32,000 nucleotides of DNA from Prochlorococcus sp. MIT 0801 (GTDB lineage Bacteria; Cyanobacteriota; Cyanobacteriia; PCC-6307; Cyanobiaceae), in the NCBI RefSeq assembly GCF_000757865.1, contig NZ_CP007754.1, positions 1,170,001 through 1,202,000 on the forward strand, in the 5' to 3' direction. The translations under genes and the position numbers were made by a program. The notes beneath the pieces were generated by a model. It worked only from the letters and a program-made list of their open reading frames with translations, was not told the origin of the DNA and did no database searches. Below, in pieces: positions 6,913 through 29,592 of this stretch (position 1 is its first letter; each line of letters starts with the position of its first letter).

Positions 6913-6922
6913 GTTTTTATTT

Positions 6923-10809: not shown

Positions 10810-10882
10810 ATATGATTGGCGACTCTTAATACAAACGCCTAACATATTGCGACCTAATATCTAATTATTAGCTAGTAAAAAC

Positions 10883-14030: not shown

Positions 14031-14791
14031 TTAGGTGCTTTTGAATTTACTCCAAGTCTCTTCTTTGTTTTCCCAAAATTAACTTTGACGACTATTCCAT
14101 CAGTTGGGAGATTTTCGAAAAGTTCACCAGCAAGCCATTCTTTATGCCATCTCTTAACTTGGAGAGGATCAGCAGTTCTATTAGTTGGCGGAATTTCAAA
14201 GAACCATGATTCTAATTTTTTTATATCTTCAATTTCATCTGCAGTACTTCCAAGAATTTCATACGCCACAAAACTAAGACCAGCACCAGTTGGGTTTTTC
14301 TTTCTTAGGTGTCCTCCAGCCAAAGCTTGGGATTTAGTTCTAGAAAGATTTGGCCCATAGAGTTCGCCACGGATCTCAAGTGGTTCTTCTGAAACTGCAA
14401 TTCCATCTTCTGGAAGTTCCACAGGAAGATTGCAAATAGTTCTAGCCGCTTCAAGTACATCTTTTCCACTTCTAGTGAATGCTGCTACTAAGGTTCCAGA
14501 TTGGTATCGAAGACCTAAAGCACAGCCATCAAATTTTGGTTGAACAATCATGGTTTCATTTCTGGCTTTCTCTGCCCACCATTCGCTAAAGCAATAATTA
14601 TCCAAACTAAGTAACTTCATTTTCTGCTGGAAATATGAATTCTGAGGATCAATTTCCTTAAGCCTATTTTCTAACTGATCAAATTGCTTGTCACTTACTT
14701 GAGCATTGCCCGATCTGTAGGCCACATCTAGCTTTTCGACCAAGCCAGAAAGTTCTTTTGCCCACGTTTTGCCCACGCTATTATTTCCCAT
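14006..14791 (-). CDS. Stand-alone NAD-dependent-DNA-ligase-type adenylation domain protein (domain Ia plus nucleotidyltransferase only), copy 1
   Basis: The start is taken at ATG 14789-14791 (MGNNSVGKTW...). The tracked N-terminal 32 aa (..GSTRSQVRILSPR..) is read-through of the tRNA fragment. LigA motifs are present: domain Ia YRSGNAQVSDKQFDQLENRLKEI, motif I QPKFDGCAL (KxDG), motif III IRGELY, motif IV DGIVVKV and motif V NWAIAMK. At 261 aa it has no OB, Zn-finger, HhH or BRCT domains. Confidence 0.7.
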   Translation of the reverse strand: MGNNSVGKTWAKELSGLVEKLDVAYRSGNAQVSDKQFDQLENRLKEIDPQNSYFQQKMKLLSLDNYCFSEWWAEKARNETMIVQPKFDGCALGLRYQSGTLVAAFTRSGKDVLEAARTICNLPVELPEDGIAVSEEPLEIRGELYGPNLSRTKSQALAGGHLRKKNPTGAGLSFVAYEILGSTADEIEDIKKLESWFFEIPPTNRTADPLQVKRWHKEWLAGELFENLPTDGIVVKVNFGKTKKRLGVNSKAPNWAIAMKN

Positions 14792-14879
14792 TAAAAAAGA
14801 CAGGCTGGGAAACCTGTCTCTGACTGATCGGGGCGACAGGATTCGAACCTGCGACCTAGTGCTCCCAAAGCAATCGGTT
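14789..14879 (-). repeat. att repeat 1: 3' 44 nt of tRNA-Pro(UGG) (14828-14871) plus its terminator; not an intact tRNA
   Basis: The reverse complement reads GC-TTTGGGA-GCACT-AGGTC-GCAGG-TTCGAAT-CCTGT-CGCCCCG-A. This gives the anticodon loop with UGG, the variable loop, the T-arm, the 3' acceptor strand and discriminator A. The hairpin AGACAGG/CCTGTCT plus T6 follows. No 5' acceptor strand (CGGGGCG) or D-arm lies upstream. It is 88/91 identical to 24511-24601. Confidence 0.85.
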
Positions 14880-14991
14880 GTACACATGAGACTGGTATAA
14901 AGATCTAATCCCTGACTAAAAATATTCTAGCTATTGTAATGAGTTTGAGACTAACAATTGAAATGAATATCTATTTGTTTTAACTTGTATT

Positions 14992-15018
14992 TACTCAGGA
15001 GATCCCGCTGAGATCCCG
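14992..15018 (+). promoter_or_regulatory. Arm-type repeat, left arm of element 1 (just upstream of int1)
   Basis: TACTCAGGAGATCCCGCTGAGATCCCG contains a tandem GAGATCCC-gct-GAGATCCC. The same 27-mer, with 2 mismatches, recurs at 24472-24498 at the opposite end of the element. Confidence 0.55.
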
Positions 15019-15038
15019 CTTTAAAGACTTCATCCTTA

Positions 15039-16424
15039 ATGAAAGCTCGTTCAGAAGCACCAGATTGGGTTCAAAGCATGAGGATCTTTCTTAGGGGGGA
15101 GGTTGGAGCAAACTGGCAGGTCACAACAAAAGGCAGGAGAAGGGCTTGTTTAGGTGTCAGGTTTGACGATGGAACGAGAGTCTTTAAAAATCTCCCTGTC
15201 TTATGGGAGAGGGCACAGCAAGCGAAGATCCAAGAGCTTGTTCTTGAAGTACATGAATTAGTGGTCAAGAAAAAGATATGCGGACTAGACGAAGCTATTG
15301 ATCGAATCAACAAAGCCAATACAGAAGTTCCTAGTGCAGCAGACAGGGCAAATCCAATGCTTCTTCTTGCCGCATGGGAAAAATACGAACACTACAAGGT
15401 GAAACAAAAAGGGGATGTCACTCAAGCGAATTGGAATAAAGAATATGGAGGGAGACCAAATACAAAAATCAACCCTCCAAGGCCAAAGGACAAAGGGAAA
15501 ACATATTTAAGGTTTAAGCAAATAGTGAAAACGGCTACCAATGCTAATGAACTATTAATCCAAATTGGTGACTACGAAGATAAAAATAAAAAGCCCGAAC
15601 CTATTAAGCCTTTAGAAGCTGGAAGTCGTAGCAGGCAAATCAGAGTTCAACATGTTGCAGCTTTTTTAAGATGGGCAACTTCAAAAAAATCAGGTTATTT
15701 ACTAAATCCAGAGAATTGGTCTGCGCCACCAAGGAATGCAATCGATGATTACGTAGGAGTTAAGTCAGCCAAGAAAAAGAAAGAAACTTCTAGTCCAACA
15801 GTTGCGATTGAAGATGACGATCTTTTAGCGCTATTAGGCTCACTACCCATAGACATAGACAAAGAAGAGAAAAGGCATCGATTAAGAGATCGTGCAATGG
15901 AGTGGGACTTTGCTCTAAAGCTTGCAATTACTTATGGCCTACGTCCTGAGGAAGTACGACATGAGCATCTAACGATCAAAAAGAATGACAAGGAATATAT
16001 GTTCTGCACCTATTGCAAAAAGTCTGGGGGAGGTATTACCAGGCCTCGCAGACTATGGCCGATCCATCCCGAATGGGAGAAGAAATGGCATTTATTGGAA
16101 CGTATTAAAAAGAGAGATCCTTTACCAAGAATGAAAGCTGGTGCAGGTGATGCATTTAGGAATTACCTACGTTTTAATGAGGTCTGGAAAAAATTAAAAT
16201 CAGATGTAGGTGTTGTGCCCTACAGCTTTAGACATTCCTATAGCAAGCGGGCACATCAAATTTACAAATTAAGTGATACAGAAGTTGCAGCTTTTATGGG
16301 TCACAGTGTCCCTGTACATAACGCTCGCTATGCTCAGTGGAGCACCGAAACTATGCTAGAAAGATCAATGGAACGTGCTATAAAATTCAGGAACATCCTC
16401 GAGGGTTCGCAAGTGGTCAATTAA
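15039..16424 (+). CDS. int: Tyrosine recombinase / integrase 1
   Basis: 461 aa. The catalytic signature is GLRPEEV (Arg I), FRHSYSKRA (HxxR) and MGHSVPVHNARYAQW (His/Tyr nucleophile). It lies about 160 nt from the att repeat. Confidence 0.9.
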   Translation: MKARSEAPDWVQSMRIFLRGEVGANWQVTTKGRRRACLGVRFDDGTRVFKNLPVLWERAQQAKIQELVLEVHELVVKKKICGLDEAIDRINKANTEVPSAADRANPMLLLAAWEKYEHYKVKQKGDVTQANWNKEYGGRPNTKINPPRPKDKGKTYLRFKQIVKTATNANELLIQIGDYEDKNKKPEPIKPLEAGSRSRQIRVQHVAAFLRWATSKKSGYLLNPENWSAPPRNAIDDYVGVKSAKKKKETSSPTVAIEDDDLLALLGSLPIDIDKEEKRHRLRDRAMEWDFALKLAITYGLRPEEVRHEHLTIKKNDKEYMFCTYCKKSGGGITRPRRLWPIHPEWEKKWHLLERIKKRDPLPRMKAGAGDAFRNYLRFNEVWKKLKSDVGVVPYSFRHSYSKRAHQIYKLSDTEVAAFMGHSVPVHNARYAQWSTETMLERSMERAIKFRNILEGSQVVN

Positions 16425-16819
16425 TCTAAATCAACTCTTTTAACTGTTGGTTTTACTTCTAGTTGTCCTTGACTAAGTTTAAAAAGATTCGCATAGGAAA
16501 TAGATTCTTCATCTCCAATTGATTTAATTTGTTCAATTGTTCTAAGAAGTTTTTCTTTAAATTCTTCAGCTTCAGATTTACTACTACAAATACGAAAGAT
16601 GTCATTATGGATTAAAACTCCCCATTGTTTTTTTATTGTTGTATGTGCATCTGCAGGGTCTTTCCGATAAGGAACAAGTCTCCCATTGATTTTCCAATTA
16701 CCTTCCTGAGAGTCTTCAATGATCAGTGATTCAATATTAGAGTTATATGAAGTAATAACTTTGTCCGCATGATCCGACCAATACCTTCGAGAATAGATAG
16801 GAGTAACTTGAATAGTCAT
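16421..16819 (-). CDS. Hypothetical protein (132 aa), convergent with int1
   Basis: Clean ORF whose 3' end overlaps the int1 stop by 4 nt. No family recognised. Confidence 0.45.
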   Translation of the reverse strand: MTIQVTPIYSRRYWSDHADKVITSYNSNIESLIIEDSQEGNWKINGRLVPYRKDPADAHTTIKKQWGVLIHNDIFRICSSKSEAEEFKEKLLRTIEQIKSIGDEESISYANLFKLSQGQLEVKPTVKRVDLD

Positions 16820-17150
16820 GTCTTTAATCCTTTTATTAGTTATTTTTGAGGTTAGAGAAAAAGACTTCCAACAAACATTAATTATTTAACAATTCACATT
16901 TCAAAAATCATAGTTTGATCGATTGAGACATAGCTACTTCTTTCTCATGCACAATCTAACTAAAAATAATTTGTAGATAATAGGTTGCACTTTTCTATAG
17001 ATGTGGATACTCTCCCACTAATAGAGAAGGCACGTTTTTGAGCTAAATCGGACAAAGCTTTTAGTTGCAACGCTAACTAAGACACCGAACTCAAATAGCA
17101 GAGCTAGCGGAAAGCCCTCACCAAATAATAATCTTTACCACTAATGAATA

Positions 17151-17375
17151 ATGTCCACGTCCCAATGGGTATCGACTTCTAATGCTGCAAAGGCCTTAGG
17201 ACTTAATCCTGTAACTCTTCTCCGAAAAAGAGTACAGCTAGAAAAAGATGGTTTCTTAAAACCCAACATCCATTACATAAGAACAGGGCAAACGAAGAAT
17301 TGCTCTTATTTATGGAAATTAGATGCACTTGAGGAATTACTCAGCAAATGGAAAGCTCCTAAGAGGTCCATCTAA
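17151..17375 (+). CDS. Small HTH DNA-binding protein (excisionase/AlpA-like)
   Basis: 74 aa. WVSTSNAAKALGLNPVTLLRKRV is a helix-turn-helix of the MerR/excisionase type. Its stop overlaps the next ATG (TAATG at 17373-17377). Confidence 0.6.
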   Translation: MSTSQWVSTSNAAKALGLNPVTLLRKRVQLEKDGFLKPNIHYIRTGQTKNCSYLWKLDALEELLSKWKAPKRSI

Positions 17376-19225
17376 TGAAAAATACATCTATCAATAAAGC
17401 ACCAACACAAGCGAAGTCGGACGACTTTACAAAAGAGTGGTCCAACAAAAGAGAATGTACTTTTAGTCATTTCAAGCAGTGGTGTAGAGAAGCCGAATAC
17501 TTAGTGCTATCAAACTATGAAGATCTAGATGCATTTAAAGGTGAAGAGATTCTTGAACCCATAAGTATTGAAAAACTATTCGAAAATGACTTCGAACCAC
17601 CAAGAGTTGGATCAGCCTATAAAAAATATTGTCGACTTGAATCTCAATATTATTTATTTGATTTAGACCACCCTGACTATCTAGGAAATTATTGGAATCT
17701 AATTGGTTTACTTTGGGGAGCACTACAAACTCATCAAGACCCTTATTTTCATAAGTGGAATTATCGAATGAAGTGCAATATCCAAGAAGCAAAGGCGTCT
17801 GGGGAAGATTATTCCATTTACGAAAGGATGATTCATCTAAACGACGTCGCAGAAATTGAGCCTATTGAAGAATTTGAAGCGCGCTTACTTCTAATAAAAA
17901 TGAAAGCTGGTGTGGTTTATAGACTTATTGAGGGAAAAGACAAGCCAGATATAGAGGATTATTTAACACCCATGGAACATATCAAGTGGCTCAAAACAAA
18001 TCACGTTCCACTAAATCCACCCTCAATAACAACAAAAACAGAAGACTCTTTAACGATCTTAGAGAAAGGTTGGAATGAGATAAAACTACTCCCTAGACCT
18101 AGTCAAAGGCGTTTAGGACTAAAGCAGCTACAAAAAGAGTTGAAGATGAATCCCAAAGAGCTCAGCTCTCTTATTTATGAATTGCAAGTGGAGAAGTCAT
18201 CTAAGAATCAAAAACTAAACAACTTCAATGCTGTCATGTCAGGTGAGTTCAACCAGAAGACACTTGTAGATAATTTCATCATGAGCGGGACAGTATCCAT
18301 GCTTGCAGGGGACGGGGGCTCAGGTAAAACCTCGTTGCTCTATCAAACAGCAGAGTCAGTTACGACAGGTAAGCCATTATTTGGAAGACTCACTACTAAG
18401 AAAAGAAAATGTCTATTAATCCAAGGTGATGAGAGTCACGTTAATGCACAAACAAAATGGAAAAGGATGAACTTGCAACCCGATCCAGCTCAATGGGAAT
18501 TGTGTTGGAAATGGACTGCAAGCCAACTTCCAGACCTAAGACAGTGGATTGATAACAATGGTTTTGGCCTTGTCCAAATGGATTCTTTTGGAGTTTTATT
18601 TGGTGGTAATGAGGCTATGAATGATGCTGAAATTGGACTCTACATGTATGAACTAAACAGTATTGCCGCGGATACTGGAGCAGCAATTGTGGTAAATCAT
18701 CATCTAAAAAAAAGGACACATAAGAATACTAAGGAGGCAGCGAAATGGAAACCATCTTTAGGAGACTTCTTTGGTTCGTCATACATCGTTAATGGAATTA
18801 GAGATGCTTGGGGTTTATGGAAAAAAGGAGAACATCTTGATGGATCGCCCATCTATGGATTGAAGTATCTCAAAGATAATTCTGGATTAATAGAAAATGG
18901 CTTTGTTATGAACCTACTAGGATCTGAAGAATCCTATAGATACTCTCTATTTGGTGACGAGGGTGGAGTTAAAGAGCTCGACGTTCGTAACACTATTCGT
19001 AGTCAACTTCATTCAGGACTTAAATCAAAAGCAGGGGAATGGCTACCATTTACAACTCTAAAAACCTTTACGCCTAAAGCAGATGACAGATCAATAAAAA
19101 GAGAATTAGCAAATTTATTTACTCATGCTGCTGCTACAGGTATAGAACGTAGACCAATTGAATCAGGACACGTTGGACGTCCCAAGTATGAATACCGTTT
19201 TGCAATATGCGGGGTGTGTGATTAA
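17375..19225 (+). CDS. Replication protein: about 300-aa N-terminal domain of unknown type plus a RepA/DnaB-like RecA-fold P-loop ATPase (AAA_25-like)
   Basis: Walker A MLAGDGGSGKTSLLYQ is present. LLIQGDES and Walker B-like GLVQMDSF follow, then VVNHHLKK. This arrangement is typical of plasmid RepA / AAA_25 helicases. The gene is translationally coupled to the HTH gene. Confidence 0.7.
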   Translation: MKNTSINKAPTQAKSDDFTKEWSNKRECTFSHFKQWCREAEYLVLSNYEDLDAFKGEEILEPISIEKLFENDFEPPRVGSAYKKYCRLESQYYLFDLDHPDYLGNYWNLIGLLWGALQTHQDPYFHKWNYRMKCNIQEAKASGEDYSIYERMIHLNDVAEIEPIEEFEARLLLIKMKAGVVYRLIEGKDKPDIEDYLTPMEHIKWLKTNHVPLNPPSITTKTEDSLTILEKGWNEIKLLPRPSQRRLGLKQLQKELKMNPKELSSLIYELQVEKSSKNQKLNNFNAVMSGEFNQKTLVDNFIMSGTVSMLAGDGGSGKTSLLYQTAESVTTGKPLFGRLTTKKRKCLLIQGDESHVNAQTKWKRMNLQPDPAQWELCWKWTASQLPDLRQWIDNNGFGLVQMDSFGVLFGGNEAMNDAEIGLYMYELNSIAADTGAAIVVNHHLKKRTHKNTKEAAKWKPSLGDFFGSSYIVNGIRDAWGLWKKGEHLDGSPIYGLKYLKDNSGLIENGFVMNLLGSEESYRYSLFGDEGGVKELDVRNTIRSQLHSGLKSKAGEWLPFTTLKTFTPKADDRSIKRELANLFTHAAATGIERRPIESGHVGRPKYEYRFAICGVCD

Positions 19226-19422
19226 TGTCATAAATTAAAAATGTCATCCCCAAATACGTTCCAGTGCAATAGAAGAGAAAGATACAATAATAATAAATGA
19301 CAAAAAACTAACACCCCACAAGTGCTTGCTGGTTCGTACAAATTAAAAGTGTAGACACATAAATTAAATGATTTTTTCTAACTTAAAAACCCTAAAATAA
19401 CTACAGAAAAATTTCTAGCACT

Positions 19423-19581
19423 GTGAGATTCGAAAGAGAACTGGAACGTCTACGTCAACGGGTACAACAGATATCGATTGAACAAGCACCACCGACTCTT
19501 CGTATGGTGATGATTAAAGATGAAATAATTCCAATAGATCTAACCGTATGGGATTTACCCATAACAGTGGAGAGTAAATAA
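19423..19581 (+). CDS. Possible 52-aa ORF abutting the next gene (below the ORF-track cutoff)
   Basis: GTG start. The translation is RFERELERLRQRVQQISIEQAPPTLRMVMIKDEIIPIDLTVWDLPITVESK*. The stop is immediately followed by the ATG at 19582. Confidence 0.25.
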   Translation: MRFERELERLRQRVQQISIEQAPPTLRMVMIKDEIIPIDLTVWDLPITVESK

Positions 19582-20028
19582 ATGACTTTGACTGATTTCG
19601 AACCAAGAAGAAAAGGAAGACCTTCTATAGAAGAGATACCTCTGCCTCCTCACGTACAAAGAGCACTTGTTCTCAGAGGCAATGGATCGTCATGGAAAGA
19701 TGCTGCTGAATCAGTAGGGATGGATTATCGAACACTCAGGAAATACGTCAGAGATCATCCTGATGCAAATGAGTTCCTGGAACGTCAAACACAAGACGCT
19801 TTAGATCAAAGCCATAGCAAACTCATTGCTGCAGCACCTGCAGCGGCACAAAGATTAATCGATGTAATTAATGACGAGGGCAATAGAGGTTATGTAGTTG
19901 TTCAAGCTGTTGAGAGTTTATTTAGGATTATTGATCGAGGTATTACAGATCGAGAGAACGCTGAGCAACTCAAAGAGATTAGAAACTCTATAAATGCTCT
20001 TGAAGGTGGAAAGATAATTAATGTCTGA
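19582..20028 (+). CDS. HTH-domain protein resembling a phage small-terminase subunit or regulator
   Basis: 148 aa. RKGRPSIEE...GSSWKDAAESVGMDYRTLRKYVRDHPDANEFLERQ is followed by a helical coiled region. This layout is common in TerS proteins. The functional call is tentative. Confidence 0.4.
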   Translation: MTLTDFEPRRKGRPSIEEIPLPPHVQRALVLRGNGSSWKDAAESVGMDYRTLRKYVRDHPDANEFLERQTQDALDQSHSKLIAAAPAAAQRLIDVINDEGNRGYVVVQAVESLFRIIDRGITDRENAEQLKEIRNSINALEGGKIINV

Positions 20029-20063
20029 ATGGCCTAGATAAGCTAGAAAGGTAGAAAGAAGTA

Positions 20064-21293
20064 ATGATGTTTATGCAACTAAGGCTATTACTCTTTCTTT
20101 CTCTTCTACCCTCAATATTCTTCATAGAAGCTAAGTCCTTTGGAGTATTAAGTGATAACTGCAATGCGAACAAATACACACCAGCTGAATTATTTAAATC
20201 GAAAGTAAATTCCGTCGTTGTTATCACCTCTGAAGGAAGTCAAGGGAGTGGATTTGTAGTTGAAAGACGCAAAGGTCATTCTTATATACTTACCAATGCT
20301 CATGTTGTCGGTAATAAAAAACGAGTAGACGTTAAATGGAATGATGGAGAAGTTGATCGAGCAGAAGTAGTTGGGAACTTGGGGGGGGATAAACTTGAGA
20401 GAGATCTTGCATTAATTAAAGTCGCTGGAACGAAAGGAACACCAATAAAACTTAGTAAAAATTCGCCAGAAGTTGGTTCTGATGTCGTCGTGATTGGAGC
20501 ACCTAGTGGTCTCGAATTTAGTCTGACAAGAGGTGTTGTTAGTCAAATTAGAGATCGAGAGAATTTTGTCCAAATTGATGCCCCTGTAAATCCTGGCAAC
20601 AGCGGTGGTCCTGTATTTAATAATGGTGGATGTGCGATTGGTGTTGTTACCTTCAAATCTGGTGAAGGGACAGAGGGACTCAACTTTGCTATCGGGAATA
20701 AGCAAATAACAAAGTTTTTAAAAAATCCAATTATTGATGAAGAGGCAATTAATAAACAAACACTTGCGAATCTCCCATTACCACCAAAATCAATTGAAGG
20801 ACCATTCCCGCCTTTTGAATTTGAATATGGAGAAACTTACAGTCAAATACAAGTTAACAAAGGGAATAAAGAATGGACTACTCTCACTGTAACAACTGAA
20901 TTGTCACCTAATAGAGAGCCAAAAACAAATCGATTAATGATAGAAAATAAATCCATCAGAAAAGATGAAGACTGGTTTTCTGTAAAAGCTATAAGAAACG
21001 CCCTATCAACCTTTGCCGAGGTCACCGTTCAAAAAACAGGTCAAAAAGTTTATCTCTCTGGTTCCTACCCTTTTGAAAGAAAAATCAATTGCAAAGATCA
21101 AATAGTTCAGCATGGTCCAACAACTTATAAAGGGAGAACAACGGGACCAACTAACTATTACAAAGTTGGTCCAGGCTGGTTTATGACAAAGTACGAGATC
21201 AAAAAAGGCAAATTAGTTGATCTGCCCGGGAACAGCAAAGAAGTCGATCAAATGGAAAACGCTGCTTTGTTTAATTATTTTTGCAAAGGCTAA
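20064..21293 (+). CDS. Secreted trypsin-like (S1C/HtrA-type) serine protease with a non-PDZ C-terminal domain of unknown function
   Basis: A signal peptide is present. The catalytic triad context is TNAHVV (His), RDLALIKV (Asp) and GNSGGPVF (Ser). The last about 190 aa contains no recognisable PDZ domain. Confidence 0.85.
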   Translation: MMFMQLRLLLFLSLLPSIFFIEAKSFGVLSDNCNANKYTPAELFKSKVNSVVVITSEGSQGSGFVVERRKGHSYILTNAHVVGNKKRVDVKWNDGEVDRAEVVGNLGGDKLERDLALIKVAGTKGTPIKLSKNSPEVGSDVVVIGAPSGLEFSLTRGVVSQIRDRENFVQIDAPVNPGNSGGPVFNNGGCAIGVVTFKSGEGTEGLNFAIGNKQITKFLKNPIIDEEAINKQTLANLPLPPKSIEGPFPPFEFEYGETYSQIQVNKGNKEWTTLTVTTELSPNREPKTNRLMIENKSIRKDEDWFSVKAIRNALSTFAEVTVQKTGQKVYLSGSYPFERKINCKDQIVQHGPTTYKGRTTGPTNYYKVGPGWFMTKYEIKKGKLVDLPGNSKEVDQMENAALFNYFCKG

Positions 21294-21344
21294 AAACCAA
21301 AATATTCACAAAGGACACATACCACAATCCTTCAAAAACTTCAC

Positions 21345-21470
21345 ATGAAATCTCAGGAATTATCTGCTGAAGAACAAGCTCTCTGGAATGAGGTTGAAGA
21401 AAGAATTGATCGTAATTTGAAAAAAGAATTATTTGAGAGGCTTAAAGAGTATGGTTTGAAAATTGAATAA
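21345..21470 (+). CDS. Possible 41-aa helical peptide (below the ORF-track cutoff)
   Basis: Manual translation gives MKSQELSAEEQALWNEVEERIDRNLKKELFERLKEYGLKIE*. Confidence 0.2.
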   Translation: MKSQELSAEEQALWNEVEERIDRNLKKELFERLKEYGLKIE

Positions 21471-21550
21471 GTTTTTATGTGATATTTGTTTTAACTAGAT
21501 CAGCTAGAAAGGTATAGAGATCTATATTCCTCATACAGAAAGAGTCCTAA

Positions 21551-22753
21551 ATGAAGCCAGACTTACGAATCACTGATCCTGATGATTTCGAGAAAGTCGT
21601 AGCAAGACAATGTATGACTTTGGGCTACGAAGTCGTAATGCCAACAAAAAACAATCCCGGATACGACATTGAATTAATTAAAGGGAAAGAAAGAATCGCT
21701 GTACAAGTTAAATGTCATAAAGCAAAGCAAAACACAGGTCAATACAAAAAGTTTGTTGCTTTTTTAGAACTTCCAATAGCTTCAAATTTCACTAGTGGAT
21801 GGTTTATCTCGCAAAGTGGATATAGCAAAAATGTTTTAGCTCTTGCTGAAGCAGATCGAGAGCCAAATCTAAAGCTAGGAACTTCCTCACAAAGAGGAAT
21901 CAAATGGAATTATGACCCTGATTTAGCCCCAGGAGAAAGCCCTGAAGAAGAGAAAGAAGAGGATATAGAGGAAAAGAATGTAAAAGATGAAGCAGTCAAA
22001 TATTTTGGAATTTTCACTTGTAAAGGAGGTGTTGGGAAAACGACTGTTGCAGCTCATCTGGCTGGTGCATTCGCAATAATGGGTTATGACGTAATCCTGC
22101 TAGATCTTGATCCTGACAGGAATTTGAGGAAATTGTTTCTTCAAGATCAGGACTCTGATGAAGATGCTTCTTTGTATATCCCCCCCAATAAAAAAGGTTT
22201 TTCAGGAGCAACAATCACTGTCTTAAATGCCGACGAATGGGATGAAAGGTCATATTCCGAAAAAGTCGTTATTTGTGATTGCTCTCCTGTCCTTTCCGAA
22301 AATCCTAAGTATCTAATAAGAAAATTTGATTATTGCGTAATACCCACAACCCTTAATCCTCTTGGTATCGCAAAGAATGGCGATGTGATCACAAGAACTT
22401 TCAAACATATTAGAAAAATGAATAACAAGGCTGAAATGTTTTGTTTGATCAACTCATATAGCGGAGCTCAATCATACGAAGAAAGAAATAAACATCTATT
22501 AGCCTTGGTTGAAAAGCCAATCAAGGAATATCAAAAGAACGATCCAAAATGTCAACTTATACATCCTGATTATGTGAAGATTAGAGAAAGTAGAGCTCTT
22601 CGATATTGGGGGTATCACCTTGTCGATGGATCTCCACCTCAATTAGCTTTCAAATCTGTTGCTAATAGAAGTGCTCCAAGAACTGACTTCATGCAATTAG
22701 CAGAATATTTAGAGGATCACACCTCAATCACTTCAACAAGAGAACTTGATTAA
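21551..22753 (+). CDS. Fusion protein: N-terminal Mrr-like PD-(D/E)xK nuclease domain plus C-terminal ParA/MinD-type deviant Walker A ATPase
   Basis: The N-terminal sequence ...GYDIELIKGKERIAVQVKCHK gives a D...E-x-K core as in Mrr_cat. An acidic linker follows (PEEEKEEDIEEKNVKDE). Then GIFTCKGGVGKTTVAAHLAGAFAIMGYDVILLDLDPD gives the KGGxGKT deviant Walker A and Walker A' region. Confidence 0.75.
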   Translation: MKPDLRITDPDDFEKVVARQCMTLGYEVVMPTKNNPGYDIELIKGKERIAVQVKCHKAKQNTGQYKKFVAFLELPIASNFTSGWFISQSGYSKNVLALAEADREPNLKLGTSSQRGIKWNYDPDLAPGESPEEEKEEDIEEKNVKDEAVKYFGIFTCKGGVGKTTVAAHLAGAFAIMGYDVILLDLDPDRNLRKLFLQDQDSDEDASLYIPPNKKGFSGATITVLNADEWDERSYSEKVVICDCSPVLSENPKYLIRKFDYCVIPTTLNPLGIAKNGDVITRTFKHIRKMNNKAEMFCLINSYSGAQSYEERNKHLLALVEKPIKEYQKNDPKCQLIHPDYVKIRESRALRYWGYHLVDGSPPQLAFKSVANRSAPRTDFMQLAEYLEDHTSITSTRELD

Positions 22754-22809
22754 GGGTTAATGAGAAAAGAATTTCTCTTACCAGTCGACCTAACTGCAAG
22801 GAACTATTA

Positions 22810-23013
22810 ATGCAAAAAATGCTAATCACAGTAGGACTACTGATCGCATCAATAGGTGTTCTATATCCTTACTTAAAACGAATAGGGTTAGGACGATTGC
22901 CTGGGGACATCATTATTCGAAGTGAAAACTCATCTTTTTATTTTCCAGTAGTTAGCTGTATTGCCATCAGCCTGCTTCTTTCAGTCATTTTTAATTTATT
23001 TCGATCCTCCTAA
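22810..23013 (+). CDS. DUF2905-like small membrane protein
   Basis: 67 aa with two TM helices flanking GLGRLPGDIIIRSEN, the characteristic (K/R)LPGDI motif. Confidence 0.55.
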   Translation: MQKMLITVGLLIASIGVLYPYLKRIGLGRLPGDIIIRSENSSFYFPVVSCIAISLLLSVIFNLFRSS

Positions 23014-23201
23014 TGAGTTTCGCTGATAACTGGGCCAGGGTTTTTGTTGTGATTACTTTTCTAACTTTTGGAGAAGCTCAGATCATTGGTGGCATCGTTC
23101 CGAACCTTATTGCTTTTAGCTTGTTTCTTGGAGCAATTGGATACTTTGCTTTAACTGGAAAAATGGCTGAGATGTTTGGTATTAAAAAACGGCCCAAATA
23201 A
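23013..23201 (+). CDS. Small two-TM membrane protein (62 aa)
   Basis: The start overlaps the previous stop (TAATG). The protein is hydrophobic with a basic C-terminus. Confidence 0.4.
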   Translation: MSFADNWARVFVVITFLTFGEAQIIGGIVPNLIAFSLFLGAIGYFALTGKMAEMFGIKKRPK

Positions 23202-23263
23202 GATTATTCCTCCACCGTTTGACCGCCGATTGCTATCGAAAACGCAGGAATGAAATGACTCAG

Positions 23264-23416
23264 TCAATCCTTATTATCAAATTCTTCTTCTTTCTGGATT
23301 TTAATTTCAACTCTCATATTCATTCCTAAAAAAACAATGATGACTCCTATTACCGGAAGCCAAAGGCCAAATTGTTTTGATTCAGCTGCTGCTTGATTAA
23401 AAATATCAGGAGTCAT
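23264..23416 (-). CDS. Possible 50-aa single-TM peptide (below the ORF-track cutoff)
   Basis: Manual translation gives MTPDIFNQAAAESKQFGLWLPVIGVIIVFLGMNMRVEIKIQKEEEFDNKD*. Its ATG overlaps the stop of the upstream small ORF (TAATG). Confidence 0.3.
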   Translation of the reverse strand: MTPDIFNQAAAESKQFGLWLPVIGVIIVFLGMNMRVEIKIQKEEEFDNKD

Positions 23417-23574
23417 TATTGATTAACACTCCATTTATCTTGATAAGGAAGTTGGTAATCCTCTTTATTCATAGGAATCCAACTCCAATCAACGCAAATG
23501 GTTATTTGATAACCAATTACATATAAAGCAAGCATTGCATTGAATAAATTTATGTGTTGAACGGGAGCATCCAT
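23416..23574 (-). CDS. Possible 52-aa peptide (below the ORF-track cutoff)
   Basis: Manual translation gives MDAPVQHINLFNAMLALYVIGYQITICVDWSWIPMNKEDYQLPYQDKWSVNQ*. It is coupled to the ORF at 23264-23416. Confidence 0.3.
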   Translation of the reverse strand: MDAPVQHINLFNAMLALYVIGYQITICVDWSWIPMNKEDYQLPYQDKWSVNQ

Positions 23575-23758
23575 AATTATCACTAAAAAATTTCACTAAA
23601 TATTCTCACAGAAGATAAGAATGTAGTTGACGGAAAATACTACACAAATTCATCCGTCGGGAGGCCACCTCGAAAGTTACTTGATGTTAATTGGAAGACT
23701 TTTTGCATCTTTCATCTCGATTTTCGTTAAAAATCAAATTCAAATATATTTTTCTTCA

Positions 23759-24064
23759 ATGGCTCTTTTTAAACTTGACTGGGCATTTCCTACTCAGGAA
23801 TCATCATTTGCAGGAGGAGAAAAATTTCTTGAATATCTTGAAGCTGGTGGTCCAGCTGACGAAACTGAAGGTTTTAAAATTCTTTGGCGTGTAACCAACC
23901 CACTTAATGGAACAGGTAGCTTCGTCGCTGAAGCAACTGATATCAGCAAGATGTGGGAACACGCTGCTCCTTGGATCAAAGGGTTTGGATGTATGTGCGA
24001 AGTAGAGGCTGTGTTCTCAGACGAGCAATTTGTTACTACTGCGAAAAAAATCTACGCATCTTAA
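23759..24064 (+). CDS. Hypothetical soluble protein (101 aa from ATG 23759)
   Basis: The tracked ORF starts at TTG 23627. The ATG at 23759 (MALFKLDWAFP...) is the more plausible start. It is followed by a strong terminator. Confidence 0.5.
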   Translation: MALFKLDWAFPTQESSFAGGEKFLEYLEAGGPADETEGFKILWRVTNPLNGTGSFVAEATDISKMWEHAAPWIKGFGCMCEVEAVFSDEQFVTTAKKIYAS

Positions 24065-24109
24065 ATAATTGACTTATCTATAGTTGAAATCATTTTTGGA
24101 TGAATACTC

Positions 24110-24136
24110 AGGACTGACTTAGCTCAGTCCTTTTTT
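24110..24136 (+). terminator. Rho-independent terminator
   Basis: AGGACTGA (24110-24117) / TCAGTCCT (24124-24131) form an 8-bp perfect stem with a 6-nt loop, followed by a T-run. Confidence 0.75.
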
Positions 24137-24137
24137 A

Positions 24138-24275
24138 TTAGTTGGCCATCATATAAAAAAGGAATCCTGCAAGAATAGTTAGCTTTGCACCAATGCCGTA
24201 TGCAATTATTTTTCCAAATTTTGATCCTCTGGAATAATCAGACCAATGATTATCAGCCTTATTACTTGAAGTCAT
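24138..24275 (-). CDS. Possible 45-aa membrane peptide (below the ORF-track cutoff)
   Basis: Manual translation gives MTSSNKADNHWSDYSRGSKFGKIIAYGIGAKLTILAGFLFYMMAN*. Confidence 0.3.
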   Translation of the reverse strand: MTSSNKADNHWSDYSRGSKFGKIIAYGIGAKLTILAGFLFYMMAN

Positions 24276-24471
24276 TTCTAATTAGAGAAAAGGTTTAGCG
24301 AGAAAAGGAAGTTGCTATGCAGTACACCTTCCTTAACTCTCATTGGATCAATGCTCACTGATAACCAATGTTCAAGGAACATAACTAGAAATTCATTATT
24401 CCTCTAGGCCGGTTGAGGTAGGGCTAACCAACACAGAGAGGTCAAAACCATTGCCACTAAAGACAAGTAAC

Positions 24472-24498
24472 TACTCGGGAGATCCCGCTGAGATCCCA
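24472..24498 (+). promoter_or_regulatory. Arm-type repeat, right arm of element 1
   Basis: TACTCGGGAGATCCCGCTGAGATCCCA matches 14992-15018 at 25/27 positions. It runs directly into the terminal inverted repeat CCAGTCTCAT (24496-24505). Confidence 0.55.
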
Positions 24499-24510
24499 GT
24501 CTCATTTTTG

Positions 24511-24601
24511 CATTAAAAAAGACAGGCTGGGGAACCTGTCTCTGACTGATCGGGGCGACAGGATTCGAACCTGCGACCTAGTGCTCCCAAAGCGATAGGT
24601 T
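24511..24601 (-). repeat. att repeat 2: 3' 44 nt of tRNA-Pro(UGG) (24550-24593) plus its terminator; not an intact tRNA
   Basis: 88/91 identical to 14789-14879 in the same orientation. The sequence to its right (the tRNA 5' side) has no D-arm or CGGGGCG acceptor strand. Confidence 0.85.
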
Positions 24602-24606
24602 TGATT

Positions 24607-24714
24607 AAGCTATAACTTGTCTTTAAAGCTATAACTCTAATTATATCTACAGTTTCTTTCTAATACTTTCTAATACTTTCTAAAATATGGTTGCTTTTTC
24701 CCAAGTTTTTCCCA
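24607..24714 (+). promoter_or_regulatory. Cluster of short direct repeats between att repeat 2 and int2 (candidate arm-type sites/promoter)
   Basis: AAGCTATAACT occurs twice (24607-24617, 24626-24636). CTTTCTAATA occurs as 2.6 tandem units (24656-24685). TTTTTCCCA occurs twice (24695-24703, 24706-24714). None of these resemble the GAGATCCC repeats of element 1. Confidence 0.4.
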
Positions 24715-24747
24715 ATAATATACCTAGTGCCTACAACGTTTTGATAA

Positions 24748-25965
24748 GTGCCACAAACCAAGCAAAAAGAAGAATGGGTTAAGCACTACAAAGACCAACT
24801 AAAAGAATTCTTTGGCAAAGGTTCTGGTTGGTATGTATCGCAAAGTGCTGGAAATATTAAATTAGAAGTTCTTGTTAATGGAAAAAAGGAAAGTAGAACT
24901 CTTCCTTATAAATGGAGCAAATCTGGCTTTGCTGTTGGAGTAGAGGAAATCAAGCAAATATTTAAAAGGTTCCATACTGGAAAAACAACAACGCTTGCTG
25001 GTGCTTGTGACATCACCAGTGCATCCAATTCAACAATTGAGACTAACTGGGAAGAACTATTTACTGCTTATAAAAAATTTGTACCGCAAGCCTCTGCCAA
25101 AACATGGGGAAAAAGTTATTACAAGACATCTGAGCAATTAGAGAAAGCAATAAAACCGCCTGTTTTAAATCAAGTGGAAAGATTGATGGCGAAAAAGAAA
25201 AAGCCTACAAATGGAACTGAATTAATGATGCAGGCGTTGGAGCCTTGGGAACAAGGATCAAGAGCAAGGCAAATTTCTAGAAGAGTATTAAAAGGATTTC
25301 TTGAATGGGCAGTATTAAATGCAAAGCTCACCGCGAATTTCGCTCCGCCTGCTGTTATTCCAGAGATCAGAGATGATAAAAGAATTGGTTATGCCTTAAG
25401 TGATATTCAGATTCTTTCGTTAATAGAAAACGAACCGGATGATAAATGGAAATATGTCTACCAACTTTTAGCGGTATTTGGATTAAGGCCAGCAGAATTA
25501 AAATATCTAAGAATTATTGATGGTGAACTTTGGTGTACTTACGGGAAAAGCATGGGTGGGAAGAAAGGTAAGAAAACAAAACGTAGAAAACTATCACCTA
25601 TTCCTTTAAAAAATATTGATGGGAAAGCCATTGAATTCAACCTTATAAAAAGAATCCAACTTGGTGAAGAAATGCCACCTCTAGGGCGTGAAGGTGAGAC
25701 AGCTATGGCACTTAGAACCCATCTAAGAGGATGGAAATTATGGAAGCAATACAGAGAGGAGGCAACAAAAATCGATGAGGTTCTCGTCCCTTATACGTTT
25801 AGGCATCGATACGCAAAAGCTAGTCATGCTTTGGGTTTTCCAATCAAAAACATTGCTGAAGCAATGGGACACACAGCCGAAGTCCACCTCGAAAATTATG
25901 CAAGATTTCAACCAGATGGAACTACCGAAATGTATAAAGCTGCCTTTGAAGGGATAGCAGCATGA
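24748..25965 (+). CDS. int: Tyrosine recombinase / integrase 2
   Basis: 405 aa with a GTG start. The catalytic signature is GLRPAEL, FRHRYAKASH and MGHTAEVHLENYARF. It shares the family with int1 but is clearly divergent. Confidence 0.9.
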   Translation: MPQTKQKEEWVKHYKDQLKEFFGKGSGWYVSQSAGNIKLEVLVNGKKESRTLPYKWSKSGFAVGVEEIKQIFKRFHTGKTTTLAGACDITSASNSTIETNWEELFTAYKKFVPQASAKTWGKSYYKTSEQLEKAIKPPVLNQVERLMAKKKKPTNGTELMMQALEPWEQGSRARQISRRVLKGFLEWAVLNAKLTANFAPPAVIPEIRDDKRIGYALSDIQILSLIENEPDDKWKYVYQLLAVFGLRPAELKYLRIIDGELWCTYGKSMGGKKGKKTKRRKLSPIPLKNIDGKAIEFNLIKRIQLGEEMPPLGREGETAMALRTHLRGWKLWKQYREEATKIDEVLVPYTFRHRYAKASHALGFPIKNIAEAMGHTAEVHLENYARFQPDGTTEMYKAAFEGIAA

Positions 25966-26726
25966 ACACCAAAGACCTAGCCAAAAAAATTCAATATTTT
26001 GATGATTGCTACAGGAAAGGAGAGGCCAAAATATCTGATGTTGAATTTGATCAGCTAGTTAAACAACTCAAAGCAAGAAATCCTAATCATCCTGCAATTA
26101 ATCCAGAAGGTATGAAACTTCTTTCACTTGGTAATAGCTGCTTTTCCGAATGGTGGGCTGAGAAAGCTAGAAATGAAACCATGATTGTTCAGCCTAAATT
26201 TGATGGCTGCGCTCTTGGCCTTAGATACCAATCTGGAACATTAGTAGGAGCCTTTACTAGGAGTGGGAAAGATGTAACCGAGGCAGCTAGAACTATTGCA
26301 AATATTCCTCTGGAGCTGCCTGAACTTGGTGAGTCAGTAAGTGAAAGTCCAGTAGAAATTAGAGGCGAATTATATGGGCCAAATTTAAGTAGAACTAAAA
26401 GCCAAGCATTAGCAGCTGGTCATTTAAGAAAGCGAGTTCCCACAGGTATGGGGCTTTCTTTCGTGGCTTATGAAATTCTTGGATCAACTCAAAATGAAAT
26501 TGATGATATTAAAAAATTAGAATCGTGGTTCTTTGAAATTCCGCCAACAAATAGAACTGCAGATCCAAAGCAAGTTAAAAAATGGCATAAAGAATGGTTG
26601 GCTGGTGAATTATTTGAGAATCTTCCTTGTGACGGAATTGTCGTCAAAGTTGCGTCTGGAGCAGCCAAACAAAGACTTGGTGTTAATTCAGTTGCACCTA
26701 ATTGGGCATTGGCTTTGAAGGATTGA
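25962..26726 (+). CDS. Stand-alone NAD-dependent-DNA-ligase-type adenylation domain protein, copy 2
   Basis: 254 aa. Its ATG overlaps the int2 stop (ATGA at 25962-25965). Motifs are YRKGEAKISDVEFDQLVKQL (domain Ia), QPKFDGCAL (KxDG), IRGELY, DGIVVKV and NWALALK. It is about 80% identical to copy 1 outside the N-terminus. Confidence 0.75.
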   Translation: MNTKDLAKKIQYFDDCYRKGEAKISDVEFDQLVKQLKARNPNHPAINPEGMKLLSLGNSCFSEWWAEKARNETMIVQPKFDGCALGLRYQSGTLVGAFTRSGKDVTEAARTIANIPLELPELGESVSESPVEIRGELYGPNLSRTKSQALAAGHLRKRVPTGMGLSFVAYEILGSTQNEIDDIKKLESWFFEIPPTNRTADPKQVKKWHKEWLAGELFENLPCDGIVVKVASGAAKQRLGVNSVAPNWALALKD

Positions 26727-26885
26727 TGTCTGACTAAAAAAACATTGAGCTAAAACTCTTGATTAAATAAAGAAGCAACTAAGAGATTTTTTAACTTTTG
26801 ATATGGGTTTATCAATTAAGAACTAAAAGGCTCAGACAAGTTGATATAGTAAAAATATAAAAACTATACACTTAATCGGACTGAT

Positions 26886-29108
26886 ATGACTCTGAGTGGT
26901 GTTACTGCATCTGGAAGCAAATATACAGTCTCAGTTATCAATCGACCTGCAAATTTAAACGTAAGCGAATCCCTTTTAGCCCTAAATGGTGAAGCTGCAA
27001 TTAAATATATTGGAGAATATCTCAAATGGCAGGGAACACTAGATATTGGTATTGAATTTGATATCAACAATACAGTTAAGAATTGGGAGGAAACTGGCAA
27101 TGCATATGCCTGTCATGGAGGACATGTATTCGATAGTAAATCAGGAGAATACAGGACAGCTGCATATGTTGAAGCAACAACTGGTATAGATACAACAGCT
27201 AGTAATGGAAGGGAAATAGATGCGGGAACATGGATTTCAAGTTGGGTAACTGATGTTCTTTGGAAAGGATATGGAGATGAAACAGCATACATAGTTGATG
27301 ACTATAGTTACTCTCTTGATGCAGTCGAGGAAAATCCAACAATATCTAATTCAGGAGAAATGAATTTCTTCGCCGTGATGGTTCATGAAATTTTTCATGG
27401 CTTAGGATTCTGGGCAATAAATAACCCTACCTTCTCTCCCTTTGATTTCGACATTATTGGTGACAATGGCTATGTCACTGGAACCAATATCAATAAGGTA
27501 TTAGGCACTTCAATGCCTTGGAACCTGACCCAAGCACATCATGCATTAGGAGATTCAAAACATAATCTTATGTATGAAAGAAAATCGGGAGCGAAGTATC
27601 AAATAACAAATTTAGACCTAGCTGTTCTTGCAGACTATGGATGGGAAATCTACAAATGGGCTGAAAAATTTGTCAGATTATCTGCAAATAATAATGTCGT
27701 TTCAACTGGAGCCGATGAAGGCGAATCAATCACCATAAATATAGACACTGATCATATTGTTGGTGGGGCTACATATAATTATTCAATTTCTGGTATTTCA
27801 GATTCAGATTTAAGTTCTGGCTCAACAAATGGATCGGTCACAGTTGATTCAGATGGAGATACAACTATAACTTTTGGCTTAAAATCTGATGCACTCACTG
27901 AAGGAATAGAAAATTTAATTTTTTCTATTGATGAAGAAAGTATAACCATTCCAATCAATGACACCTCTTTAACTAATCAAACTCCATCTAATATCAGCCT
28001 CTCATCTTCTTCCTTTAATGAGCATATTGCTGCAGCTTCTACGGTCGCAACTCTCTCAACGACGGATGCTGATTCATCCGATACGCATACCTACTCCTTA
28101 GTAACTGGCTCAGGTGATACCGATAATGATTCATTCACCATTGATGGTTCATCTTTAAAAATCAAAGCTTCTCCTGATTACGAGACAAAATCTTCCTACA
28201 ACATTCGCTTACAAACAACTGATAGTAGTGGTGAAACCTACGCCAAAACATTCACGCTTTCTGTTAATGATATCGATGAATTCACCGCAACCATTTCAGG
28301 AACATCCAGCACTGATAGTTTACAAAGTACGAGTGGTAACGATTCAATCGATGGGCTAGGTGGTACAGATACAGTTACTTATACCGCCAGCTTCTCCAAC
28401 TATTCCTTTACCCGTGGCACAGACACCCTACAAATAGCCGATCAACGTACGACAGGTACAACCGATGGAACCGATACTCTTAAAAATATTGAATACATTC
28501 AATTTACTGATCAAACAGTAGAAGAATCAAAAGTAGACGTAGTTAAAACCTATAGCGGTAATTTTAGCGATTATAAGTTCTACAACAAAGGTAATGGTAA
28601 ATATGAGATCAAAACTGATTCTGGCTATGACGATATCACTGGCTATCCTCTACTAACATTTACAGGAGAAGCAACAACTAGCTCCTTCCGTGATGTAAGT
28701 GCCATTGTTGATATCAAAGGGACATTTGACCAAGTCACTGGTTTAGACACAGACGATGCAAAGATGTTCCGTTTATATAACGCTTCTTTCAAACGCCTTC
28801 CAGATCCTGATGGGTTGAAGTATTGGATTGGTAAATATAGTTCTGGAGAGAATGATTCAAGAGCAGTTGCATCTTCTTTCTTAGTTTCTGCAGAATTTAA
28901 GGAGCGATACGGAGAGAACGTTTCTAATGCAAAGTATGTTGAGACTCTTTATACAAATGTCCTTGGTAGGGACTATGACCAAGATGGTTATAACTATTGG
29001 CTAGGTAATTTAAATGCAGGTACTGAAACAAGATATGAACTCCTTTTAGGCTTTGCAGAAGCAGCAGAAAACAAAGCACTCTTTACTGAGATGACTGGTT
29101 TTGGTTGA
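26886..29108 (+). CDS. Large multidomain extracellular-type protein: HExxH metalloprotease-like region, Calx-beta-like, cadherin-like and C-terminal DUF4214 domains
   Basis: [13 protein letters not shown] gives an HExxHxxG motif. [13 protein letters not shown]...[22 protein letters not shown] is Calx-beta-like. [18 protein letters not shown]...[36 protein letters not shown]...LSVNDIDE is a cadherin repeat. The C-terminal YWIGKY...AEFKERYG...[22 protein letters not shown] is DUF4214. No N-terminal signal peptide is present, and an in-frame stop lies 36 nt upstream of the ATG. Confidence 0.8.
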
Positions 29109-29120
29109 GACGTGTATTTT

Positions 29121-29354
29121 TTAAAGCACGTTATAAACTCTTCTTTGAATATTTCTTCTAATTTTTTGTTCTAAAGGTATACATCCTTGAGGTTGGAGTT
29201 GGAAGAATACTCTTCCTGAAATTGACTCGACTACATAATCATCAAGTTTACCCTTATTTAACAATCTATAGAGGGTTTTAGTAGATTTATATCCTAATAA
29301 TCGTGCTGTCTGGGAGATAGTGAAAACTTCGAAGGTTCTTGTTTGTTGTTTCAT
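29121..29354 (-). CDS. Small HTH DNA-binding protein (excisionase/regulator-like)
   Basis: 77 aa. FTISQTARLLGYKSTKTLYRLLNKGKL is a helix-turn-helix. Confidence 0.55.
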   Translation of the reverse strand: MKQQTRTFEVFTISQTARLLGYKSTKTLYRLLNKGKLDDYVVESISGRVFFQLQPQGCIPLEQKIRRNIQRRVYNVL

Positions 29355-29536
29355 CTTACGTTTTTTACATTTGCGTAAACAGTAGTTAATGCTATACTTC
29401 TCGGCTTTTCTGTTAAAGATCCGTGTAAAACCGTGTCCATATTTAGTGGCCTGTGCTTACTGGAATTTTGGGCCCCGAAAGTAACCTCATCAAAACGGCC
29501 AGAGAAGATCCATCACACCATATATAGACAATAATA

Positions 29537-29572: not shown

Positions 29573-29592
29573 TTATTATTTAGTAATAAGAA

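Follow-up and report, generated by a model that had tools for sequence, protein, structure and literature searches.

A solitary gene joining an Mrr-type nuclease fold to a ParA/MinD-type ATPase in the cargo of a Prochlorococcus tycheposon, a candidate ATP-gated DNA nuclease

What does a ParA-type ATPase do when it is built into one polypeptide with a nuclease domain and has no partner gene? The question is raised by an open reading frame (ORF) of Prochlorococcus sp. MIT 0801, located at positions 21551-22753 (+) of a 32,000-nucleotide (nt) stretch of contig NZ_CP007754.1 (positions 1,170,001 to 1,202,000), the whole of which is called the window below. The known tasks of ParA/MinD ATPases are positioning and partition, in which they act together with a partner protein. 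In the family described here the engine always comes joined to a nuclease fold, and a partner gene is never present, which points to an undescribed use of this ATPase class. The architecture is conserved, the gene is solitary, and it is carried by an element in Prochlorococcus and is chromosomal elsewhere. The protein is neither a component of a ParABS system nor an entry of the defence catalogue. Tentatively, and with more reserve than assurance, it is read here from its motifs, from structure models and by analogy as an ATP-gated, ParA-dimerised DNA nuclease with a role in conflict or restriction.

The ORF starts with ATG and encodes 400 amino acids (aa) plus a stop codon; its standing as a gene is supported by the ORF list, Pfam, the homologue set and substitution rates. 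A first-pass annotation, made from the letters of the DNA alone, had described it as a fusion of an Mrr-like domain with a ParA/MinD ATPase, and this is borne out for both halves by profile and by modelled fold. The coordinates and the strings quoted in that annotation (DIELIKGKERIAVQVKCHK, which spans residues 39-57, KGGVGKT, residues 158-164, and DLDPD) are all present, and profile searches with Mrr_cat and CbiA/ParA/AAA_31 models all matched above cut-offs. The N-terminal PD-(D/E)xK domain occupies 21572-21913 (+), as delimited by Pfam, an AlphaFold2 (AF2) domain model and Foldseek. Its Mrr_cat match (PF04471) covers residues 8-102 (E 1.3e-9, 38.6 bits against a cut-off of 21), and the folded unit extends past the end of this match to about residue 121. 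The ATPase domain covers residues 151-400 (22001-22750, +) on the evidence of Pfam, NCBIfam, Foldseek and invariant columns. P-loop models of the CbiA/AAA_31/ParA type match residues 153-317 with E-values of 4e-14 to 1e-7, CbiA and AAA_31 above their curated cut-offs. Between the two domains lies a linker rich in proline and glutamate (residues 122-150; 21914-22000, +), which predicted disorder, charge and substitution rates all set apart. Besides Mrr_cat and the ATPase no domain was detected by Pfam, NCBIfam or the structure model, so that a reader domain for modified DNA is absent, and the sequence shows no evident amphipathic helix for membrane targeting at its C-terminus. An identical protein (P0001) exists in public data. 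Compared with an 88%-identical Prochlorococcus copy, the ratio of nonsynonymous to synonymous substitution rates (dN/dS) is about 0.02, with dS saturated; it is 0.014 in the ATPase and 0.19 in the linker. The gene is real, and both domains are under strong purifying selection.

The whole protein was modelled with AlphaFold from the family alignment, with a moderate mean predicted local distance difference test score (pLDDT) of 74.9. In this model the N-terminal domain is confident and linker residues 129-146 are disordered (pLDDT <50), while residues 346-376 have low pLDDT despite high conservation. Modelled alone with AF2, the N-terminal domain reached a pLDDT of 89.9 and a predicted template modelling score (pTM) of 0.84, with an alpha-beta-beta-beta-alpha-beta core. 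Its top Foldseek match is 1y88 (AF1548; query-normalised template modelling score, TMq, 0.64), the structural representative of the Mrr_cat group (PMC3424549). Further fold matches are the catalytic domains of MspJI and AspBHI, archaeal Hjc resolvases and NucS/EndoMS. In the PDB the C-terminal domain matches ParF, TP228 ParA, Soj, FlhG and MinD with a probability of 1.0 and target-normalised scores (TMt) of up to 0.67. Searches by sequence gave less: the profile of the N-terminal domain had no match in the PDB, and the sequence of the fusion protein had P-loop matches only. The models thus confirm a predicted restriction-endonuclease-like nuclease fold for the N-terminal domain, whose lack would have refuted the first-pass proposal, and a predicted ParA/MinD ATPase fold for the C-terminal domain.

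The joining of the two domains is no singular case. A word-indexed search returned 941 homologues of like architecture at 90% clustering. The best 120 of these 941 are all 360-420 aa long, contain both domains and are 55-88% identical to the query; their hosts are Prochlorococcus, other cyanobacteria (Xenococcaceae and others) and proteobacteria (Thiospirillum/Rhodoferax, Chromatium). An exhaustive search of 1.84 billion representatives found about 50 clusters (50% identity) at E<1e-30, nearly all spanning both domains. Matches to both domains reach down to about 30% identity; beneath that, only P-loop matches occur. By these searches the fusion belongs to a family that is old and widespread and whose two-domain architecture is fixed, and the obligate nature of the fusion down to about 30% identity implies that the two activities would be coupled. 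Mrr_cat still scored in eight of ten distant family members that were profiled; therefore no effector swapping was found among these ten. The linker varies more. Across the family it is rich in proline, glutamate and serine, 11-35 aa long and has a median net charge of -2, so that the highly acidic linker of the first-pass description holds for the present protein (net charge -9) and not for the family; strong acidity is specific to the marine picocyanobacterial clade. Identity to the proteobacterial copies is 57-61%, nearly equal to that to other Prochlorococcus copies (64-66%), which suggests horizontal transfer. A scan of a genome collection with the fusion protein found one close relative, in Prochlorococcus sp. 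AG-409-B05.

The residues expected of both activities are in place. According to the homologue alignment, the nuclease core comprises D39 (codon 21665-21667), Q52 (21704-21706) and K54 (21710-21712), the whole lying at 21665-21712 (+). Among the 120 closest homologues Q52 and K54 are kept in 98-100%, and D39, E41, F13 and E14 in at least 90%. The catalytic core is thus, by alignment, of the Mrr-type D...QxK form (D39...Q52-x-K54, plus E14); the D...ExK motif first proposed, with its ExK inside DIELIK, was mis-assigned. In the ATPase, conservation marks a deviant Walker A motif, TCKGGVGKT, with signature lysines K158 and K163 (22019-22045, +), a Walker A'/switch I motif, DLDPD (residues 185-189; 22103-22117, +), and a Walker B motif, VVICDCSP, with D243 (22265-22288, +). 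All of these (K158GGVGKT, DLDP, CD243CSP) are invariant in the 120 closest homologues. A conserved C-terminal block at about residues 331-390 is specific to the family and includes DPKC, LxYWGxH, PQLAF and PRTDFxQLAEYL. The ATPase also has four invariant cysteines, C242, C244, C262 and C334. Binding of a metal or of an Fe-S cluster by these was considered and rejected; in the Walker B and 'IPV' strands of ParA such positions are ordinarily hydrophobic or Cys.

A deeper comparison used 41 cluster representatives with 28-50% identity, and residues were counted out of 42. The ATPase residues hold almost throughout: K158 in 41/42, K163 in 42/42, D185 in 41/42, D187 in 35/42 (N in seven) and D243 in 42/42. 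The nuclease residues are less constant, with D39 in 32/42, Q or E at position 52 in 30/42, and K54 in 30/42 (R in six more). Only some two thirds to three quarters of the deep lineages thus have the canonical triad, although misalignment at low identity may account for part of the apparent loss. Because the ATPase residues are fixed while the triad degrades, the ATPase is probably the indispensable core of the protein. The nuclease residues look intact in the clade of the window and are not universal across the family.

Does the gene belong with others? The context set comprised 27 loci, the window and 26 others; neighbours were clustered in 23 of them, and four further loci were inspected. 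No recurrent partner gene was found in either group. The only neighbour classes that repeat among the 23 are promiscuous ABC ATPases and response regulators, neither of them at a consistent distance or orientation. Neither parB nor an adaptor gene is present at any of the 27 loci, in agreement with the first-pass remark that no parB-like neighbour was evident, and the segment 21250-23300 contains only short, chance-level repeats and no centromere-like array. At E<=1e-10, tblastn found no match in 72,556 plasmids or 50,697 phage genomes, and a search of IMG/VR returned P-loop matches only and no family member.

These results bear on the simplest explanation, that of an ordinary ParABS-type ParA with a fortuitous N-terminal extension. 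Automatic annotation points that way: the database labels of homologues read only 'AAA family ATPase', 'restriction endonuclease' or 'chromosome partitioning protein', the top NCBIfam match is ParA_partition (NF041546), and PHROGs assigns the fusion protein to a ParA-like partition family (PHROG 164). The NCBIfam score of 56.9 bits, however, misses the equivalog level of 180 by far; parB, adaptor gene, centromere repeats and plasmid homologues are all missing from the sets just named, and the N-terminal domain is a conserved nuclease fold and no accident. This explanation is effectively refuted and is given hardly any credence.

Outside Prochlorococcus the gene has ordinary chromosomal neighbours, among them ccm genes, pdxJ, nitrate/bicarbonate-type ABC transporters, a tRNA synthetase with polynucleotide phosphorylase (PNPase) and S15, and an amylase, and the 13 contexts annotated with Pfam consist mostly of housekeeping genes. 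Synteny is clear for two pairs of loci (L005/L010 and L026/L030). Prochlorococcus copies, by contrast, were found only in islands or mobile elements. One homologue (64% identical; locus L008) lies 2.6 kb from the same tRNA-Pro fragment as the one flanking the present element and from a related tyrosine recombinase (YR), and that of strain MIT 1306 adjoins DUF3854/AAA_25, T5orf172 and SNIPE genes. DNA similarity between the window and locus L001 is confined to 21550-22737, and therefore the gene appears to move as a single-gene unit. Two Prochlorococcus loci and one locus of another cyanobacterium share an unannotated family (333-521 aa, no Pfam match), encoded upstream of the fusion gene at a distance of about 3-4.5 kb (L001 4633-6198, L008 4440-5441, L009 2443-3540), in differing orientations; its recurrence could be coincidence or loose linkage.

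With such contexts the protein might instead be a nucleoid-tethering or positioning ATPase with the ParA engine as its functional core, its Mrr fold mainly a built-in adaptor for DNA or cargo, comparable to the DNA-binding N-terminal extension of type Ia ParA proteins, and cleavage secondary or dispensable; it could then anchor the excised, replicating circle of its tycheposon. Housekeeping and sometimes syntenic chromosomal contexts agree with this, as do an ATPase that stays invariant in the deep family, where about a quarter to a third of lineages have a degraded triad, and a fold that is nearest to bona fide partition ATPases. The element has its own replication gene (see below), so a maintenance function would be useful to it. 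The nuclease triad, however, is 90-100% conserved in the large clade to which the window's own protein belongs, there are no centromere-like repeats by the gene and no co-occurring cargo or adaptor gene, and the family is absent from the 72,556 plasmids, where tethering would be most useful. The majority of homologues are not on mobile elements, which also weakens the first-pass suggestion of a partition or anchoring protein for the excised element. A tethering function is considered unlikely, although it deserves to be kept in mind.

The fold matches of the N-terminal domain allow another explanation, in which a structure-specific, Hjc- or NucS-like nuclease would be delivered or regulated on the chromosome by the ParA-type ATPase, as an accessory of DNA repair or recombination. 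The domain model matches archaeal Hjc and NucS/EndoMS nearly as well as restriction enzymes, the gene sits alone in housekeeping neighbourhoods and is very highly conserved in sequence, and one picocyanobacterial copy lies 2.7 kb from umuDC. Against this, the distribution is patchy and accessory, with Prochlorococcus copies only in islands and elements, the identity across phyla suggests horizontal transfer, none of the 27 loci shows a link to known repair operons, and by profile as by fold the domain matches the Mrr family itself best. Such a repair role is regarded as improbable.

A link to defence was sought with PADLOC-DB 2.0.0. No system component matched the fusion protein at full length, in keeping with the first-pass statement that it is not a named defence system; the partial matches were a 44-residue Walker A segment to PDC-M28B (E 4e-6) and, at E>0.01, the Mrr-like parts of ZorD and PDC-S02. 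By raw count, the 76 neighbours taken from 14 loci gave matches to 15 PADLOC families, one member each. Two scans of 10 proteins each localised one strong match (L030, 5537-6706) and one weak match (L017). The strong one fits Menshen NsnA with an E-value of 2e-65 and also PD-T4-2_A and a type II restriction endonuclease model. At this locus the NsnA/PD-T4-2_A-like gene is followed by a 344-aa ORF (together 5537-7747, +), co-oriented with and upstream of the family member at 7950-9116; the defence gene is 1.3 kb away from it. A clearly localised defence neighbour thus occurs in one of the 27 loci. The association with defence appears sporadic, and the contextual support that it gives to a defence role is weak.

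In the mechanism proposed for an ATP-gated nuclease, ATP bound at the deviant Walker A motif would drive the formation of a ParA-type 'sandwich' homodimer, as K158, K163, the DxD switch and D243 suggest. The dimer would bind DNA, an expectation drawn from its fold kinship with ParF, TP228 ParA and Soj. Dimerisation would then pair two N-terminal Mrr-type domains on flexible tethers of 25-30 aa so that both strands are cut, by analogy with dimeric PD-(D/E)xK enzymes, and ATP hydrolysis would reset the switch. No dedicated partner gene would be needed. The most likely role would be the restriction or exclusion of foreign DNA, such as phages and competing elements, to the benefit of both host and element. 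Dimerisation, DNA binding, cleavage and biological role are here inferred from homology and motifs.

Several observations argue for this mechanism: both profile cut-offs are passed and both folds are modelled, the triad and the ATPase motifs are conserved, the fusion is obligate and has no partner, the gene is mobile, and one relative has the NsnA-like neighbour. N-terminal Mrr_cat effectors on nucleoside triphosphatase (NTPase) switches are moreover an established theme of defence (PMC9122126; bioRxiv 10.1101/2024.07.02.601686). A number of results weigh against it. The contexts outside Prochlorococcus, housekeeping and partly syntenic, are unlike a defence island, and the family is absent from the phage, plasmid and IMG/VR collections. 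PADLOC matched no system, distant members show no effector swapping, and the protein has no domain able to tell self from non-self DNA. About a quarter to a third of the deep lineages are without the canonical nuclease residues while their ATPase is perfect, and cleavage may therefore be dispensable in the family as a whole. The one-gene anti-phage system envisaged in the first-pass annotation accordingly found no positive context. Its fullest form, a one-gene immune or exclusion nuclease whose ATP-bound dimer would coat DNA and fire paired Mrr-type domains at phage or rival mobile DNA, trafficked by tycheposons among cells of the most abundant phototroph of the ocean and spread across phyla by horizontal transfer, is rather doubtful.

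The nearest relatives of the ATPase by fold are type Ib ParF and TP228 ParA and chromosomal Soj/ParA (TMt 0.57-0.67), with which it has the Walker A' and Walker B motifs and the deviant Walker A motif with its signature lysine in common; by homology, it would be expected to dimerise in an ATP-dependent manner and to bind DNA. Unlike these, the fusion protein has only 16-20% identity to them, no ParB/parS, an obligate N-terminal nuclease domain and its own C-terminal block, and it does not occur on plasmids. In type Ia ParA proteins (P1 ParA, F SopA) the polypeptide also includes an additional DNA-binding domain at the N-terminus. That extension, however, is a winged helix-turn-helix for operator binding and works with ParB/parS, whereas the extension of the fusion protein has a PD-(D/E)xK fold and no partner. 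With E. coli Mrr and the type IV restriction enzymes MspJI and AspBHI the protein shares the Mrr_cat-type domain, the D...QxK core and the fold matches; these enzymes carry a modified-base reader (winged helix or SRA-like), in whose stead the fusion has a ParA ATPase at the C-terminus. The logic of a nucleotide switch acting on a nuclease is common to OLD/GajA (ABC-ATPase plus Toprim), GmrSD/BrxU (ParB-like NTPase plus HNH), Avs/STAND proteins with N-terminal Mrr_cat and Lamassu with an Mrr_cat effector. The fusion differs from all of these in that its switch is a SIMIBI-class ParA/MinD ATPase and that it has neither a sensor repeat domain nor effector swapping.

No description of the Mrr_cat-ParA architecture, and no described example of a nuclease system switched by ParA/MinD, was found in the literature. 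The nearest case is that of the vWA-MoxR conflict systems, which contain inactive MinD/ParA-like effector domains and also Mrr-like restriction endonuclease domains (Kaur et al. 2020, PMC7159879). For those MinD/ParA domains inactivity is predicted, and they belong to large multi-gene systems, whereas the fusion has invariant ATPase motifs in a solitary gene. The likeness to tycheposons (Hackl et al., bioRxiv 10.1101/2020.12.28.424599) concerns the carrier only, with its tyrosine recombinase, primase/helicase, partial tRNA-Pro(tgg) repeats and cargo; the text of that paper and the supplements consulted make no mention of ParA or Mrr cargo. The family may thus represent a type of NTPase-coupled nuclease that uses a ParA/MinD switch, in an architecture that is undescribed. 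Whether it proves to be an ATP-gated restriction or exclusion enzyme or a one-protein device for tethering DNA, a mechanism would be added to the ParA field. In the former case the defence catalogue would gain a compact single-gene module. The family also offers a concrete candidate function for the cargo of tycheposons, whose non-nutrient cargo is mostly unexplained. With about 50 clusters at 50% identity the family is small, and with 400 aa its protein is short, which makes it amenable to direct biochemistry.

The carrier of the gene extends from 14784 to 24601 (about 9.8 kb). It is bounded by a 96-nt direct repeat, 95% identical, whose left copy (14784-14879, -) contains the 3' half of a tRNA-Pro(UGG) with a terminator hairpin and whose right copy (24506-24601, -) contains a second such 3' half, as established by direct repeat and tRNA comparison. 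On the minus strand these attachment (att) repeats read as the T-arm and the 3' strand of the acceptor of the tRNA, followed by the terminator hairpin. The match of the half-tRNA repeats to the tRNA covariance model is weak, and the window contains no intact tRNA gene; the 29-nt 3' end of the repeats recurs, however, inside intact tRNA-Pro(tgg) genes of two other contigs. This tRNA is one of the seven tycheposon targets (Hackl et al., bioRxiv 10.1101/2020.12.28.424599). Directly inside the left repeat lies a gene for a divergent YR of 461 aa (15039-16424, +), without a Pfam, PHROG or PADLOC match. It was recognised by BLASTP, through matches to the YR at 24748-25965 (E 4e-18) and to the one beside the L008 homologue (E 4e-23); its identity to neighbouring YRs is 24-30%, and the C-terminal R-H-x-x-Y region is kept. 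The replication gene, of the AAA_25 primase/helicase type, is at 17375-19225 (+; Pfam AAA_25 2.5e-24, PHROG primase/helicase families). In order, the element contains att, the YR gene, the AAA_25 gene, a 148-aa ORF, a protease gene, the fusion gene, two small membrane ORFs and a DUF3303 gene. With a YR, a replication gene and flanking partial-tRNA repeats, 14784-24601 therefore has the anatomy of a complete tycheposon. The fusion gene lies in its cargo part, and the first-pass placement on a mobile element is upheld.

The protease gene (20064-21293, +) encodes a trypsin-like serine protease of 409 aa with an N-terminal signal peptide and a C-terminal region of about 190 aa of unknown fold. As a partner of the fusion protein it was rejected, given the signal peptide and PADLOC matches (RT-Protease_XI, LmuA, Avs1b) at the level of the protease domain only. 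A 41-aa ORF upstream of the fusion gene (21345-21470) was likewise set aside; it is not conserved and is not a ligase remnant. The repeat search found two copies of a 26-nt motif (20034-20059 and 21495-21520, +), one just before the start codon of the protease gene and the other 31 nt before the start of the fusion gene. Its 20-nt core, CTAGATNAGCTAGAAAGGTA, has two matches in the window against 0.04 expected and is absent from 98 other loci. The two genes may share it as a promoter or operator, or it may mark a cassette junction. A 31-nt repeat, GTAnnTACTCnGGAGATCCCGCTGAGATCCC, 90% identical, is present after the left att repeat (14987-15017) and before the right one (24467-24497) and would fit a junction sequence of the circularised element or an arm-type recombinase site.

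A second integrative element (24506-31194) begins at the right att repeat, and its far end is beyond the window. It contains a YR gene (24748-25965), which overlaps a ligase-adenylation gene (25962-26726, +), a gene for a 740-aa cadherin/DUF4214 protein (26886-29108) and a prohead-protease/major-capsid fusion (29593-31194, -). On account of this set of YR, ligase and capsid-protease it resembles a phage-inducible chromosomal island (PICI) with a tycheposon layout. Truncated NAD-ligase adenylation genes at 14006-14887 (-) and 25962-26726 (+) constitute an inverted repeat of 613 nt with 76% complementarity (14008-14620 versus 26112-26724). The left copy is outside the first element, has no adjoining recombinase and may be what is left of an older element in inverted orientation.

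The part of the window at 2628-10400 contains a phosphate/arsenate-island set, namely a pstS-like periplasmic binding protein, a chromate transporter (chrA), an MFS transporter, GAPDH (gap), an ACR3/SBF-type transporter and DUF3804, followed by a Cyano-1 RNA at 10336-10400 (64.7 bits). This is a typical Prochlorococcus variable island adjoining tycheposons. Between the phosphate-island genes and the first element, in a region of small ORFs, lies a 152-nt direct repeat (10877-11028 and 13643-13794) without an Rfam match, its copies 92% identical and 2766 nt apart; a third, partial copy of its last 30 nt is at 15740-15769, within the YR gene. The 29-nt 3' end of tRNA-Pro(tgg) was also found in 44 viral-fraction contigs of IMG/VR (loci L100-L142). 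In ten of the 12 that were checked it does not belong to an intact tRNA, and these copies may be att sites of tycheposon- or PICI-like elements caught in virus-like particles.

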